Positions 821-39,209 of a stretch of DNA of 45,899 bases are shown here, piece after piece. The DNA lies in IMG/VR virus record IMGVR_UViG_2711768067_000020, one strand, 5' to 3'. Numbering within the stretch: position 1 is the first letter of the stretch; every line of letters begins with the position of its first letter. Origin of the DNA: a virus. Its lineage: Duplodnaviria; Heunggongvirae; Uroviricota; Caudoviricetes. The translations under genes were made by a program, and so were the position numbers. The notes under the pieces were generated by a model. The model had not been told where the DNA came from, made no database searches, and worked only from the letters and a program-made list of their open reading frames with translations.

Positions 821-873
821 GGGCGGCAGAGCAGTCACGGAGTAAAACTGATACCGCCAAACGTCACCAGAAA
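821..873 (-). ncRNA. dicF: DicF small RNA (ftsZ-repressing sRNA) with T-run terminator
   Basis: Reverse complement reads UUUCUGGUGACGUUUGGCGGUAUCAGUUUUACUCCGUGACUGCUCUGCCGCCC followed by UUUUU, identical to the 53-nt DicF sequence as I recall it; coordinates +/-2. Confidence 0.8.
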
Positions 874-4694: not shown

Positions 4695-5441
4695 ATGGAG
4701 ACTGTTTTTGACGCACTGAAAGCGATGGGAAAAGCCACGTCGGTAGAGCTGGCTGCGCGACTTGATATCAGTCGTGAAGAAGTGCTGAACGAGCTGTGGG
4801 AACTGAGAAAGGCTGGCTTCGTTGATAAAAGCGTATACACCTGGCGTGTGGCTTATAACAACGTTCAGCAGGAACAGCCAGCGCCGGCAGAACTGTCGGA
4901 AGAAACCACCACGGCAACAGTCGCTAAAATTTCGGAGTGCGATTTAACTGCGACGGTTGAACAACGCGGACCACAAACGGCTGATGAGCTGGCTACGTTG
5001 TTCGGTACAACATCACGCAAAGTGGCTTCAACGCTGGCAATGGCAATCAGCAAAGGTCGTCTGATTCGTGTAAACCAGAACGGTAAATTTCGTTACTGCA
5101 TGCCGGGCGATAAGTTACCAGCAGAGCCGAAATCCGTGCCGGTAACGGAAAATGATGGTAAAGCCTTTCCTCAGCCAGCAGGTGTTGCGTTACCAGTACA
5201 GGAAGCTGCAACACAGGAAGATATTAAAACAGAAACTGTGGCTGATATTGTGCAATCGTTGCCATCGTTTACTGAAACGCGAGCGGATGACCTGGTTTTA
5301 CCATCGCTGCATATGGCAAACCGCGAATTGCGTCGGGCGAAAAGTCATGTCCAGAAGTGGGAGCGAGTCTGCGCCGCGCTGCGGGAGCTGAACAAGCACC
5401 GAGATATGGTTGCCGGGATTTGTCGGAAGTCCGGGCAATGA
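4695..5441 (+). CDS. Phage protein of unknown function
   Basis: 248-aa ORF with GGAGG SD; N-terminal region winged-helix-like; function not assignable. Confidence 0.5.
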
Positions 5442-6300
5442 GCGGATGGTGCAGGCCTGAAATTATGATACTAACAATGAAGGTAAAATGCATCGGCAGT
5501 CTGATTGGTCGTAGTGAGGCGGCGGTCAGGATGAAAGCCCGGGTTAAGGGAATAAGCCTGATTCTGCGGGGTAATTTTCACCAGTCAACAAAATATCCGT
5601 AGCGCGATAACGGTCAAAAATCATGGCGCTGACACTTTTGTGCCACTGTAGATGACTGTACCTAAGTTCAGGGGAGAAGAACACGTCCGGTGGGATGGTC
5701 GGGCCAGATTTAAAGGGCAGGTCATGGCTCCAGCCAGTACGCTGGCAATGGAGGCTGCCTGGCTGGAAATTGATATGGGAACCACGCCACTCAGGGATTT
5801 ACTGCCGGTCCAGAGAATAAATTCCTGTTACGGTTACACCACTGTGATCTTGCAAGTGCAGGAAAGTAGGTCTACACGGTAACGCGAGTGCGTGTAACTT
5901 TTGATGTTATTTCCGTAGAAACACCGGACAAATTTTCGCTGGCAGGTCATGCTGAAGGTATAAATCTGCAGATTATGGACAATTACGGATATCCGGCAAG
6001 AGCCGGAAAAAGCATGCCGCCTCTAATTCTCAGTGGAAGATGGACTTGATTATACTCATTGCATTGTCAGAAATAGTTATCCATTAAAGGCTGGCTATTC
6101 CAAACAGGATGTTGATTACAAAAATGTAATCAACATGTAAGGTTTATACTCTTCAATATGCGTATAATTTTCCTTATTTTGTTAACTTTAAATAACAAGC
6201 TATGCACGAGGTAAAGTCGGATAAGTTTATCTGGATGTAATATATATTATTTGTAGTGTTTATAACTTTATTTCATGATAACCAATAAAAGGAGTTTTTT

Positions 6301-7059
6301 ATGAGGAACATAATGGCAGGTTTTTTAATATTCCTGTCTTCTGCTGCTTATGCTGATATCAATCTGTATGGTCCTGGTGGCCCGCATACAGCCTTGCTTG
6401 ATGCAGCCAAACTTTATGCCGAAAAAACAGGTATTATAGTGAACGTTCATTACGGCCCACAGAACAAATGGAATGAAGATGCCAAAAAAAATGCAGATAT
6501 CTTGTTTGGCGCATCAGAACAATCTGCTCTGGCTATCATTCGGGACCATAAAGACAGCTTCAGTGAAAAAGATATTCAGCCTCTTTATCTGCGAAAAAGT
6601 ATTTTACTGGTAAAGAAAGGTAATCCTAAAAATATCCGGAGTATTGACGACCTGACCAGACCCGGGATTGGCGTAATTGTTAATGATGGTGGTGGTACCA
6701 GTAATACATCAGGCACTGGCGTCTGGGAAGATATTGCCGGACGTAAAGGGAATATAGAAACTGTCGCCGCAATCCGAAAAAATATTATTTTATATGCGCC
6801 CAATAGCGGAACTGCACGTAAGGCTCTTGAGAATCAGCCTGAAGCAGATGTCTGGATAACCTGGGCTGACTGGGCAGCCAGTAATCCAGAAATTGGTGAT
6901 GTCGTGGAAATAGCGCCAGACTACGTGATATGGCGTGATATGAACATTACAGTACGTCAGGATGCAAATGATGAAACCCGTCGATTTGCAGAATGGCTAC
7001 AAACCGATGAAGCGGCGCCTGCATTCAAAAAATATGGCTGGACCAGGAAAGGCACTTGA
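6301..7059 (+). CDS. paa: Paa/AcfC-like secreted solute-binding-fold protein (adherence-associated family)
   Basis: 252 aa; signal peptide MRNIMAGFLIFLSSAAYA; mature N-terminus ADINLYGPGGPH... typical of the AcfC/PEB3/Paa family; AGGAG SD; AT-rich flanks. Confidence 0.75.
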   Translation: MRNIMAGFLIFLSSAAYADINLYGPGGPHTALLDAAKLYAEKTGIIVNVHYGPQNKWNEDAKKNADILFGASEQSALAIIRDHKDSFSEKDIQPLYLRKSILLVKKGNPKNIRSIDDLTRPGIGVIVNDGGGTSNTSGTGVWEDIAGRKGNIETVAAIRKNIILYAPNSGTARKALENQPEADVWITWADWAASNPEIGDVVEIAPDYVIWRDMNITVRQDANDETRRFAEWLQTDEAAPAFKKYGWTRKGT

Positions 7060-7397
7060 CATCCTCCACGTCCTTCAGAACGTGGATTCTTTTTCCGGAT
7101 GCCGCGCCAGCGGCATGTAGGGGCAGCTCACAAAACGGAAAAAATTGTACGCTAAGCCTCGCCAGGTGAACTGAATTCATTCCGATATGGGAATTCCCAT
7201 ATCGGACGAAAACGGCTTGCTGTAACGGCAGAGTTAAGTAGAATTGCTGCGGGTGCTTGAGGCTATCTGCCTCGGGCATGAACACCAACGGCAGATAGAT
7301 AAAAGCCCCACCCGACTATAAATCGAAGTGAGGCCCCTATATGCTCGTCACATATAGATTGCCTCTTACGGACCGAAAGGTCAAGGAGAAGCAGGCT

Positions 7398-7553
7398 ATG
7401 AAGCAGCAAAAGGCGATGTTAATCGCCCTGATCGTCATCTGTTTAACCGTCATAGTGACGGCACTGGTAACGAGGAAAGACCTCTGCGAGGTACGAATCC
7501 GAACCGGCCAGACGGAGGTCGCTGTCTTCACAGCTTACGAACCTGAGGAGTAA
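7398..7553 (+). CDS. hok: Hok/Gef-family type I toxin (track ORF 7341..7553 is the overlapping mok-like leader frame)
   Basis: 51 aa MKQQKAMLIALIVICLTVIVTALVTRKDLCEVRIRTGQTEVAVFTAYEPEE; one TM helix plus conserved C-terminal region; upstream inverted repeat TCCGATATGGG-AATTC-CCATATCGGA at 7180-7215 consistent with Sok/leader structure. Confidence 0.85.
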   Translation: MKQQKAMLIALIVICLTVIVTALVTRKDLCEVRIRTGQTEVAVFTAYEPEE

Positions 7554-7623
7554 GAGACCAGGCGAGGGAGAAATCCCTCGCCACCTCTGATGTGTCAGGC
7601 ATCCTCAATGCACCCGCACTTAA

Positions 7624-7646
7624 CCCGCTTCGGCGGGTTTATTTTA
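7624..7646 (+). terminator. Rho-independent terminator / hok mRNA 3' stem-loop
   Basis: CCCGCTTCGGCGGG hairpin followed by TTTATTTT. Confidence 0.5.
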
Positions 7647-8011
7647 TCTGTAAATATTTTTATAAAAATAATGCCCACACACAGCATAAAACAAAAAGTA
7701 TCACAGATAAAAAAGGAGCGTAATGTGCAGATTTGTTGTTTTCCATATTTACTCACTTTAACATAATCAAAATTGATATGGTTGTTGTTTTGGTGGTTTC
7801 AAACGAGATGTTATGGTGATCTGGTAAAATTGCATAACATTAAAATTTAATTTATCTAATCGCTTTTAATAATAAGCGTTGTGTTTATCCCAACAATCTG
7901 TTGTTTGACTTTTATTCCATTAATGTAGGGGCTTTACACTGGAACCAGTTTATTTATACTTTATACGCCAGCCTGAACAACTGGCACCTGCTGCGCCAGC
8001 AGAGACAACCG

Positions 8012-8290
8012 ATGGCGCACGATACCAAATTACACAATTCTGATGATTCTGCCGTCTTTGCCAGCAGGTGCGGACGGCGTTTTCATGCATTCAAATCGGA
8101 CTGGTTCCAGCATCCACCATGCACTGAAGAGCAGGCTGAATGGATAATTCAGTGTTACCGCAGGCGCGGATACGAGGTTAAAAAAGCCCTTAGCCTCGAC
8201 TACCGTCACTGGATAATCTCAGTCAGATTGCCTTACTCCGAACGCCCACCGCGTCCGTCCCGTACATTCCAGCAACGCATCTGGAGGTAA
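8012..8290 (+). CDS. Hypothetical small protein (Rem-like position upstream of DUF968 gene)
   Basis: Internal ATG of track ORF 7901..8290 (MAHDTKLHNSDD...); synteny with the Qin rem-ydfU region; no motif. Confidence 0.35.
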   Translation: MAHDTKLHNSDDSAVFASRCGRRFHAFKSDWFQHPPCTEEQAEWIIQCYRRRGYEVKKALSLDYRHWIISVRLPYSERPPRPSRTFQQRIWR

Positions 8291-8291
8291 C

Positions 8292-9341
8292 GTGCGGGTA
8301 TTACTTCGACCTGTTCTGGTACCGGAACTCGGGCTGGTGGTCGTTAAGCCGGGCCGTGAATCCATGCCGGTATTCCACAATACCCGGGTACTGGTGGAGC
8401 CGGAACCGAAAAGCATGCGTAATCTGCCGTCCGGGGTCGTTCCTGCCGTTCGCCAGCCGCTGGTGGAAGACAAAACATTGCTGCCGTTTTTCAGTAACGC
8501 ACGGGTAATTCGTGCTGCTGGTGGTGCTGGTGCATTGTCTGACTGGCTGTTGCGCCATATTAAATCCTGCCAGTGGCCACACGGCGATTATCATCACAGC
8601 GAAACCGTTATTCACCGTTATGGTACCGGCGCAATGGTGTTGTGCTGGCACTGCGACAACCAGCTGCGTGACCAGACATCCGAATCACTCGAGCAACTTG
8701 CTCATCAAAATCTGTCAGCATGGATGATTGACGTCATCGGTCACGCAATAAGCGGTACGCAGGAGCGTGAATTATCTCTGGCTGAATTATCCTGGTGGGC
8801 GGTCCGCAATCAGGTGGCGGACGCGCTACCGGAAGCGGTATTACGTCGTTCGCTGGGGTTGCGTGCGGAAAAAATCCGCTCAATGTACCGTGAAAGCGAC
8901 ATCGTACCGGGAGAGCAGACCGCCACCAGCATACTGAAACAGCGCACAAAAAATCTTGCGCCGCTGCCTCACGCCCACCAGCAACAGAACCCACCACAGG
9001 AAAAGACGGTGGTCAGCATTGCCGTTGATCCTGAGTCTCCGGAATCTTTCATGAAACGACCTAAACGTCGCCGCTGGGTTAACGAGAAATACACACGCTG
9101 GGTGAAGACACAGCCGTGTGCGTGTTGTGGTAAGCCAGCCGACGATCCCCATCACCTGATTGGTCATGGTCAGGGCGGAATGGGGACAAAATCTCACGAT
9201 ATTTTCACGCTACCGCTGTGTCGGGAGCATCACAACGAGCTTCATGCGGATCCTCTGGCGTTCGAAGAAAAGCATGGTTCTCAGGTTGATTTAATTTTTC
9301 GTTTTCTTGATCACGCCTTTGCAACTGGCGTGCTTGGGTAA
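8292..9341 (+). CDS. DUF968-type nin-region protein (YdfU-like) with C-terminal HNH-like Cys/His motif
   Basis: 349 aa (GTG start); C-terminus CACCGKPADDPHHLIGHGQGGMGTKSHDIFTLPLCREHHNELH; same length as Qin YdfU. Confidence 0.6.
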   Translation: MRVLLRPVLVPELGLVVVKPGRESMPVFHNTRVLVEPEPKSMRNLPSGVVPAVRQPLVEDKTLLPFFSNARVIRAAGGAGALSDWLLRHIKSCQWPHGDYHHSETVIHRYGTGAMVLCWHCDNQLRDQTSESLEQLAHQNLSAWMIDVIGHAISGTQERELSLAELSWWAVRNQVADALPEAVLRRSLGLRAEKIRSMYRESDIVPGEQTATSILKQRTKNLAPLPHAHQQQNPPQEKTVVSIAVDPESPESFMKRPKRRRWVNEKYTRWVKTQPCACCGKPADDPHHLIGHGQGGMGTKSHDIFTLPLCREHHNELHADPLAFEEKHGSQVDLIFRFLDHAFATGVLG

Positions 9342-9353
9342 AAGAGGTGAGTG

Positions 9354-37877: not shown

Positions 37878-37941
37878 TTAGCCAGGTAACACAGTGTTAT
37901 GACAGCCCGCCGGTTCAGGCGGGCTTTTTTGTGGGGTGAAT

Positions 37942-38871
37942 ATGGCAGTAAAGATTTCAGGTGTGCTGAAAGACGGCACAGGAAAACCAATACAGAACTG
38001 CACCATTCAACTGAAAGCCAGACGTAACAGCACCACGGTGGTGGTGAACACGGTGGCCTCTGAAAATCCGGATGAGGCAGGGCGTTACAGCATGGACGTC
38101 GAGTATGGTCAGTACAGCGTCACTCTGTTGGTGGAGGGATTCCCTCCATCACATGCCGGGACCATCACCGTGTATGAAGATTCTCAACCGGGGACGCTGA
38201 ATGATTTTCTCGGTGCCATGTCGGAGGATGACGTCCGGCCGGAGGCAATGCGTCGTTTTGAACTGATGGTGGAAGAAGCGGCGCGTCACGCAGAGGAGGC
38301 GAAGAAGAATGCCGGAGAGGCGGAGACATCAGCGAGGAATGCCGGCATATCAGCCAGTCAGGCAGAAGAGAGCGCTGCAAATGCTGACACTTCAGCAGGG
38401 GAGGCATCGGAGTCAGCCCGGCAGGCGGCAGAAAGTGCAGCCGCTGCAAAGCAGTCAGAGGAGGCGTCCTCGTCCTCGGCCTCTGCGGCCGCTCAAAAAG
38501 CCAGTGAGTCATCACAAAGTGCAGCAGATGCTGAATTGTCAAGAAAGACGGCAGAAAGTGCAGCCGGTAATGCAGCCAGGGATGCAACGACCGCAACAGA
38601 AAAAGCCCGGGAGTCAGCAGAAAGCGCACAGTCAGCGGAACAAAGCAGGATAGCGGCGGAAGAGGCCGTAAACCGAATCCCCACCGTGGTGGGACCTCCC
38701 GGGCCAAAGGGGGAACAGGGGCCCGCGGGTCCTCAGGGGCCGAAGGGTGATAAGGGAGAGCGCGGTGACACCGGCCCTGTCGGGGCAACCGGCGAACGGG
38801 GACCGGCAGGTGATGCTGGTCCGGCAGGCCCGCAGGGGCCGAAAGGAGGGGCCGTCTGTGCGCGTGAATGA
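37942..38871 (+). pseudogene. stf: Side tail fibre Stf copy 1, truncated within the collagen-like repeats
   Basis: [17 protein letters not shown]-terminus as lambda Stf; about 906 bp near-identical to stf copy 2, then diverges at about 38848 into an 8-codon tail and stop. Confidence 0.7.
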
Positions 38872-39145: not shown

Positions 39146-39209
39146 TTAGCCAGGTAACACAGTGTTATGACAGCCCGCCGGTTCAGGCGGGCTTTTTTGT
39201 GGGGTGAAT

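Follow-up and report, generated by a model that had tools for sequence, protein, structure and literature searches.

A paa (adfO) cargo gene and a hok/mok/sok cassette as probably independent neighbors in an OI-57/Qin-like Escherichia coli prophage

In O-island 57 (OI-57), prophage CP-933O, of Escherichia coli O157:H7 EDL933, two neighboring genes have been described: adfO (z2053), which "resembles Paa," and ckf (z2054), whose product is a presumed phage-associated cell-killing factor. In OI-57, adfO was reported to be "always present together with ckf (z2054)," and an adfO mutant showed reduced adherence to HeLa cells (PMC8565820). Both genes also serve as OI-57 markers in PMC10562709 and PMC3133550, and they are an established pair of risk markers for OI-57-type prophages in the typing of enterohemorrhagic and enteropathogenic E. 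coli (EHEC and EPEC). Here, we analyzed a stretch of 45,899 nucleotides of a caudoviricete genome (IMG/VR virus record IMGVR_UViG_2711768067_000020; hereafter the window), in which a 252-amino-acid open reading frame (ORF) assigned to Paa lies upstream of a hok toxin locus. Gene pair and gene order are the same as those of adfO and ckf in OI-57, so that the pair as such is already known. We conclude that the two very probably represent independent modules lying side by side, a moron-type paa cargo and a hok/mok/sok type I toxin-antitoxin (TA) cassette of the phage backbone, whose adjacency reflects the place at which cargo is exchanged and no functional partnership.

The closest described relatives of the toxin locus are hok/sok of plasmid R1 and, in E. 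coli K-12, hokC(gef)/mokC/sokC and hokD(relF), which have the same layout of leader, mok, hok, and antisense Sok as the window. In the Stx2 prophage Sp5 of strain Sakai, hokW-sokW is a working type I TA system; after mitomycin C treatment, a RecA-dependent drop in sokW and rise in HokW are seen, lysis begins sooner, and the phage yield is halved when the locus is missing (PMC8621323). Among close relatives, this prophage-borne hok of the window's subfamily is the only one whose role in a prophage has been tested by experiment. For the gene upstream, the nearest counterparts are Paa of porcine EPEC, AcfC of Vibrio cholerae, and PEB3 of Campylobacter jejuni, with which it shares the SBP_bac_11 fold, a putative N-terminal signal peptide, and a length of about 250 residues. 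Extra genes of this sort in phages are known as morons, which have their own promoter and terminator and are inserted between conserved lambdoid genes.

As seen in the window, the published primers for adfO and ckf (PMC4366395, Table 1) match exactly, at 6375-6392 (+) and 6857-6876 (-) for adfO and at 7341-7361 (+) and 7523-7542 (-) for ckf, and the predicted products are 502 and 202 bp, compared with the published 501 and 201 bp. Records of O157 PPompW phages, in which Paa, gef ("phage maintenance protein"), and rem are annotated, show this arrangement as well and are 97.3% identical to the window across 88% of positions 5400-8300. The window has an NleG effector gene at the right prophage end, as reported for OI-57 (PMC8565820); unlike the OI-57 description, however, it also has cif and a gene for an NleH/OspG-like kinase, and it is a different mosaic from the OI-57 phages, its best complete-genome match covering 92% of the first 25 kb at 98.7%. 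Within a lambdoid (OI-57/Qin-like) E. coli prophage, the paa-hok region falls in the nin-type, early-right portion, with DnaT-like and lambda-P-like replication genes followed by DUF1627 on its 5' side and with DUF968, RusA, and Q on its 3' side (Table 1). This location had already been recognized by a sequence-only reading of the window, which had described the region as an insertion.

The ORF of 252 residues matched Pfam PF13531 SBP_bac_11 (1.6e-34; protein residues 20-247 against positions 1-226 of the 227 of the profile) and, among PDB entries, PEB3 (3fir; 4.1e-82, residues 11-248) and AcfC (4jb7; 1.5e-81), both across the full mature length. It is identical to PEB3 at 125 of 238 positions (52.5%), and it shows 100% identity to the RefSeq protein "AcfC family adhesin Paa" encoded in E. 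coli O103:H2 12009. Given solved structures of 52%-identical homologs and RefSeq-identical proteins, we consider its identity settled as Paa, a putatively secreted protein of the AcfC/PEB3 family with a solute-binding fold, as the sequence-only reading had proposed. The hydrophobic N-terminus MRNIMAGFLIFLSSAAYA ends in AYA in front of D and, when the translation is inspected by eye, looks like a Sec signal peptide. Paa has a periplasmic-binding-protein fold of the PEB3/AcfC type and would be exported by this peptide; a role in adherence is reported, and in our judgment Paa is less likely to be a classical adhesin than a secreted protein that binds an anion or metabolite.

The gene is part of a cassette that is also carried by IncF plasmids associated with pigs and cattle, at 86 to 89% identity (blastn; shared span 6097/6107-7122); there, paa stands alone amid insertion sequences (IS) and replication genes, with unrelated flanks. 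The Paa relatives encoded there have 92 to 94% amino acid identity, and RefSeq names them only "substrate-binding domain-containing protein." A further homolog with 87% amino acid identity is chromosomal in Escherichia albertii NBRC 107761 (L012, 6001-6762), not in a prophage, and its neighbors are agaS-like, amidohydrolase, and phosphotransferase system (PTS) EIIC and EIID genes (aga locus). The paa transcription unit appears self-contained: an AT-rich region precedes the gene, and a hairpin with a T-run follows it. No stretch within 6100-6300 matched sigma-70 at 9/12 or better, and the TATAAT at 6163-6168 stands alone, without a good -35. A perfect 12-bp inverted repeat at 6109-6136 (ATGTTGATTACA aaaa TGTAATCAACAT) is situated at the exact left edge of the plasmid-shared cassette and at the 3' end of a fimbrial pseudogene; it may be a recombination site or a former terminator, both of which are conceivable.

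Next to paa, the Hok protein matched the whole profile of Pfam PF01848 HOK_GEF (2.9e-23), and it is identical to HokD translated from loci L002, L007, and L008 (RefSeq WP_000813254.1); the match to the NCBIfam Hok subfamily stayed under the cutoff (48.5 versus 73 bits). The overlapping mok frame starts with MLVTYRLPLTDRKVKEKQA, compared with MLNTCRVPLTDRKVKEKRA in K-12 MokC. Rfam RF01794 (sok) was matched over the full model (1-157) at 7251-7400, with 103.9 bits against a gathering score of 59 (E = 9e-24), and, if placed by the start of this model, the hok mRNA would begin at G7251. In the predicted minimum free energy fold of 7251-7645 (-166.2 kcal/mol), tac at 7251-7262 pairs with fbi at 7603-7615, and none of 100 shuffles was equally stable (z = -7.4). 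The -10 of the putative hok promoter is kept in all relatives aligned, and its -35 region is variable. On the opposite strand, the predicted Sok RNA begins with a single-stranded 5' tail, and its hairpin runs out into UUUU (z = -4.5); its putative promoter combines a -35 TTGACC (7384-7379), a 17-nt spacer, and a -10 CAATCT (7361-7356), with 6 nt to position 7349. A simple sigma-70 scan did not score this site. Overall, 7251-7643 reads as a complete hok/mok/sok type I TA cassette. The toxin, the mok-like frame, and the 3' stem-loop named in the sequence-only reading are thus borne out, and the Sok antisense promoter for which it had proposed a search has a counterpart in the Sok homolog.

The comparison with K-12 underlines this completeness. 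Through the leader, the locus aligns to K-12 hokC/sokC, and mok is in frame with hok as mokC is; the 3' end of hokC is cut by IS186, whereas the window copy is complete at both ends. K-12 hokD shows 98.4% identity to the hok coding sequence (CDS) and 3' region but matches just 7384-7640 of the window, without the leader, the mok start, or sok. Cassettes of 933W-type Stx phages show about 85.5% nucleotide identity to the window over 7209-7625, and the mok/hok ORF of one such Stx2 phage (L092) shows 83% amino acid identity over 70 residues, the Hok part matching at 47 of 51 positions as counted from the alignment; rather than occupying the nin slot, the 933W-type cassette lies in the early-left region, where eaA-like genes are nearby, and its leader allele differs.

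To define the limits of the modules, homology to paa-less prophages was followed with blastn. It ends at 5410/5411, about 10 codons before the DUF1627 stop (L008, L009, L093, and L095), and resumes in front of hok at 7159 (L010), 7204 (L093), 7209 (L009 and L095), 7222 (L008), 7230 (L011), or 7231 (L007). The homology of the hok cassette ends in turn at 7635-7648, which corresponds to the hok terminator, and that of the DUF968 block resumes at 7965-8009. These breakpoints resolve the region into two putative segments, a cargo of about 5610-7158 and a hok cassette of about 7159/7204-7643. The sequence-only reading had instead taken 5880-7650 as one AT-rich insertion, which does not survive the comparison. 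The span has 44.3% GC, compared with 51.4% for the whole window, and ranks only 124 of 883 same-size windows (lowest first). Its AT-richness was traced to the paa upstream region (26% GC) and the paa CDS (43.9%) and, outside the unit, to the spacer at 7644-7964; the fimbrial remnant has 47.6% GC and the hok cassette 52.5%. A single AT-rich island spanning paa and hok was ruled out by this segment-wise GC content together with the homology breakpoints. The proposed start at 5880 falls within the fimbrial pseudogene, and the cargo starts at about 5610. The spacer is outside the paa cargo. It varies among otherwise near-identical prophages and is not that of O103:H2 12009 or of the O157 versions; O103:H2 12009 follows the window at 99.8% as far as 7640 and then has another segment with an extra 86-residue ORF.

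The breakpoints did not leave an "empty site": relative to L093 or L010, about 1.7 to 2.8 kb of small genes is swapped for the 1.55-kb cargo. The event is a segment replacement that truncated a phage DNA-binding gene, not a clean insertion; the cargo block supplanted the small nin-type genes that are usual there, and the 3' half of the DNA-binding gene was lost. Neither an IS nor an integrase adjoins the cargo within the window. Transposition via direct or inverted repeats around the cargo was considered and rejected, as only short chance-level matches were found besides two local palindromes.

The short broken ORFs upstream of paa, which had been noted as insertion scars in the sequence-only reading, could be assigned to two gene remnants. 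The first is the 5' half of a phage DNA-binding protein gene that stands 3' of DUF1627 in related prophages; a CAG is changed to TAG at 5600-5602, homology stops at 5609, and the gene is likewise truncated in L011, beside other cargo. The second is a fimbrial-subunit pseudogene without a signal peptide and with two frameshifts and two in-frame stops (tblastn), labeled in RefSeq as "fimbrial protein, frameshifted; internal stop" in the identical loci L001 and L002. Positions 5635-6099 of this pseudogene have 84% nucleotide identity to a gene from another E. coli (L003), which is an intact subunit gene within a chaperone-usher operon. Since the plasmid paa cassettes start at 6097/6107 and retain just the last ~35 to 45 bp of the fimbrial fragment, this dead fragment suggests that paa formerly stood downstream of a fimbrial gene. 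An intact locus of this kind was not found in the L003 operon or in the seven species representatives probed. L003 itself was rejected as such a locus because the usher gene, not paa, comes next. In the seven paa loci outside E. coli (E. albertii, Citrobacter, two Edwardsiella species, Providencia, Aeromonas, and V. cholerae), homology is confined to the CDS, which led us to reject an ancestral fimbrial-paa locus in other species, and no Hok, fimbrial, DUF968, or DUF1627 homolog lies within 6 kb of paa.

Regarding distribution, paa was found in 611 of the 5,426 complete E. coli genomes surveyed, at 582 chromosomal places and 36 places on plasmids, and its CDS is at least 99% identical in 577 records. 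The hok cassette occupies 10,919 places in 4,722 genomes (median, 2 per genome; maximum, 10), and the full paa-hok arrangement is present in 555 genomes. The block from hok to DUF968 is common to paa-less prophages at up to 97.8% identity. Because the cassette has the same position in thousands of paa-less prophages that carry unrelated cargo 5' of hok, we assign it to the phage backbone and not to the virulence cargo. The slot 5' of hok holds AbiH and a hypothetical gene on the opposite strand in L007, DUF977 and QueH in L008, strings of small nin-type genes in L009, L010, and L095, ORF6N in L011, and a methyltransferase and hypothetical genes in L093, and it looks like a hot spot of cargo exchange from which the adjacency of paa and hok would have arisen. 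Across prophages, the accessory genes of the slot also include S-adenosylmethionine methyltransferases, DUF551, and DUF4014; in L011, a RelE/ParE TA pair lies just 3' of hok.

These data divide the earlier proposal of an inserted unit. Its paa part stands as imported cargo, as indicated by breakpoints, deviant GC content, and plasmid copies; its hok part does not, being ancestral backbone in paa-less prophages, an outcome that the sequence-only reading had itself named as refuting. Nor is the pairing special, as had been thought, since the slot holds other cargo in relatives and the adjacency has already been published as adfO/ckf. In keeping with phage morons, paa is a nonphage gene between conserved modules, with deviant base composition and a terminator-like hairpin on its 3' side, and at least five related prophages with the same flanks hold other genes in the slot. 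It differs from them in that its promoter was not positively identified and in that a replacement dragged in a fimbrial fragment.

Several points weigh against two independent modules. The promoter scan yielded no convincing sigma-70 site for either paa or Sok, so that both assignments rely on position and homology. The linkage is tight in one direction, with about 555 to 573 of the 582 chromosomal paa copies in the paa-hok arrangement. In addition, the hok leader and Sok beside paa make up an allele of their own. Set against six other prophage hokD loci, the stretch from its first hairpin to the mok hairpin is shorter by 21 nt, mok differs at its 5' end, and the Sok -35 reads TTGACC, not TTGCCT; in these respects the allele resembles K-12 hokC. 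Full-length copies of this allele (7296-7392) occur in no more than 617 genomes, and in 590 of these they reach at least 99% identity. The figure of 617 is close to the 611 paa-positive genomes, which suggests that paa and the leader allele mostly travel together as one young haplotype of about 2 kb. Such a haplotype is compatible with co-selection without being evidence for it. An exclusive linkage of the allele to paa was nevertheless rejected as absolute, given that the paa-less L093, from pangolin isolate S163-2, carries the allele at 100% over 7296-7392 and the cassette at 96.4% over 7204-7643. Physical closeness (about 100 to 250 bp) is sufficient to explain the linkage of paa and the allele.

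The allele also bears on the marker ckf. What this marker denotes can be clarified: it is the mok/hok frame, and the complete hok/sok cassette to which the frame belongs is present in most E. coli genomes. The forward-primer site of ckf at the mok start (7341-7361) differs in all six other hok loci aligned, and this placement of the primer on an allele-specific mok start is probably why the ckf PCR (polymerase chain reaction) tracks adfO although hokD-type loci are nearly ubiquitous. Beyond correct annotation, the finding matters little. A genome can have up to 10 hok places, and differences between Sok alleles may also keep these places free of cross-talk. A broader proposal would combine these observations: the spot just 5' of hok as a preferred cargo exchange point in Qin/OI-57-like prophages with the hok cassette as the right-hand recombination anchor, allele-specific Sok and leader sequences that let several hok cassettes coexist in a multi-lysogen without cross-neutralization, and a paa-hok haplotype kept partly because the TA allele benefits the carrier prophage. 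Taken as a whole, we regard this proposal as speculative and rather improbable.

As to what the cassette does, its family membership would predict the following steps. A stable, folded hok mRNA would be translationally closed by 5'-3' (tac/fbi) pairing, hok translation would require the upstream in-frame mok start, and a short constitutive antisense Sok RNA would pair with the mok start region and block mok; once the Sok supply stops, Hok would be made, and the inner membrane would be damaged or permeabilized. Prophage addiction and phage exclusion are possible roles of hok, and none of the proposed roles is specific to paa.

Among the alternatives, the one that survives best holds that hok mainly serves at induction, by early membrane damage and faster lysis and release, or in superinfection exclusion by abortive infection, and not in maintenance. 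The earlier lysis and higher phage yield conferred by hokW-sokW of Sp5 after induction argue for it, as do the citation of R1 hok/sok as implicated in phage defense (PMC8621323) and the resemblance of the window mok/hok frame to that of the 933W-type Stx2 phage. However, that the L092 ORF corresponds to HokW is something we infer, and the window allele is unlike the common hokD-type leader in its length and Sok -35. We thus consider such a role nearly as plausible as its opposite, stopping just short of favoring it. A second alternative, that the locus does nothing and has become an inactive relic in the way of the hok loci of K-12, could appeal to the leaderless hokD and the interrupted hokC described above, as well as to the weak Sok -10 hexamer CAATCT that the promoter scan left without a score. 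Against this, all elements are intact in the window, namely, the promoter, tac/fbi pairing, mok, hok, the Sok hairpin with its U-tail, and the terminator; the Hok protein is identical to that of three other loci; and the Sok promoter layout is that of the annotated K-12 sokC. A relic is therefore unlikely. The weakest alternative, that paa and hok were inserted jointly as an AT-rich unit whose toxin is an addiction module stabilizing cargo or prophage, can point to chromosomal paa nearly always adjoining hok, to the literature report of adfO always found with ckf (PMC8565820), to the largely paa-confined leader allele, and to hok/sok as a classical plasmid system of postsegregational killing (summarized in PMC8621323), yet it is very hard to reconcile with a hok cassette of backbone GC content with its own homology boundaries and its place in thousands of paa-less prophages, with the identical leader allele in L093, with paa cassettes on plasmids and in E. 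albertii that have no window-type hok, and with the expectation that a TA locus would not guard a 1.5-kb neighbor unless a deletion also removed sok, adjacency alone providing no coupling. For a toxin that stabilizes the cargo, we found no specific support, and two independent modules remain the preferred explanation.

Some features around the hok promoter deserve mention. The perfect palindrome 5' of hok (Table 1) is present, slightly diverged, in the paa-less L010 and absent from L007 and L093, and its possible functions include those of an operator or of a barrier to read-through. In some relatives, homology sets in no earlier than 7231, a point between the -35 and -10 elements, and an origin of the hok promoter as a chimera made by the insertion was considered; it was rejected because the paa-less L010, homologous from 7159 on, has both the palindrome and the TTGCTG -35. 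Two further Rfam matches were taken as chance, one to rsmX at 7556-7643 (23.5 bits), which falls on the hok 3' structure, and one to sok on the minus strand at 7143-7308 (19.3 bits, E = 0.26), which falls on the palindrome.

Table 1. Positions of the paa and hok modules, their flanks, and other features of the window
Feature	Position	Strand	Basis or remark
paa (= adfO) CDS, 252 aa	6301-7059	+	Pfam, PDB, and RefSeq matches
paa cassette	6097-7122	+	26%-GC upstream region, CDS, and terminator-like hairpin
Terminator-like hairpin and T-run directly 3' of paa	7065-7096	+	Hairpin 7065-7086
Full-length hok mRNA (predicted)	7251-7643	+	Rfam, fold, terminator
hok toxin CDS, 51 aa	7398-7553	+	Pfam HOK_GEF
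mok reading frame, 70 aa	7341-7553	+	In-frame N-terminal extension of hok; "ckf" of the literature on Shiga toxin-producing E. coli (STEC)
Putative hok promoter	7217-7244	+	TTGCTG-16 nt-TAGAAT; read from sequence, alignment
hok terminator stem-loop	7622-7639, T-run to 7645	+	
Sok-like antisense RNA	7349 to ~7295	-	Homology to annotated K-12 sokC
Sok promoter (putative)	7356-7384	-	Sequence reading and alignment
Perfect 26-bp palindrome	7181-7206	.	Halves TCCGATATGGGAA and TTCCCATATCGGA; ~45-70 bp 5' of hok start
Truncated phage DNA-binding protein gene	5438-5602	+	54 aa; intact, 84 aa, in L010
Fimbrial-subunit pseudogene	~5610-6140	+	RefSeq, blastn, tblastn
DUF1627 phage gene (left flank)	4695-5441	+	Pfam DUF1627, 1.7e-96
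AT-rich variable spacer between hok and 92-aa ORF/DUF968 block	7644-7964		28% GC, noncoding
DUF968 gene (right flank)	8292-9341	+	
RusA	9351-9728		3' of DUF968
Q antiterminator	9725-10546		3' of RusA
DicF small RNA	821-872	-	Immunity-side region
tRNA-Met and tRNA-Arg(tct)	10690-10942	+	Just 3' of Q
STnc100 small RNA match	11713-11885	+	101.5 bits; 5' of SASA-family esterase gene (12023-13873)
OspG/NleH-like kinase	40891-41781		
Cif	42005-42853		
NleG	43721-44347		
AvrPphF-ORF-2-like ORF	45246-45899	-	Weak

Elsewhere in the window, the right prophage end (40891-45899) is AT-rich and harbors the type III effector-like genes listed in Table 1. Two consecutive ORFs, at 37936-38871 and 39204-40523, both start with a "prophage tail fibre N-terminal" domain and contain collagen repeats, and only the second has a tail-fiber C-terminal domain. 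This arrangement suggests that the tail-fiber gene may have been duplicated or recombined.

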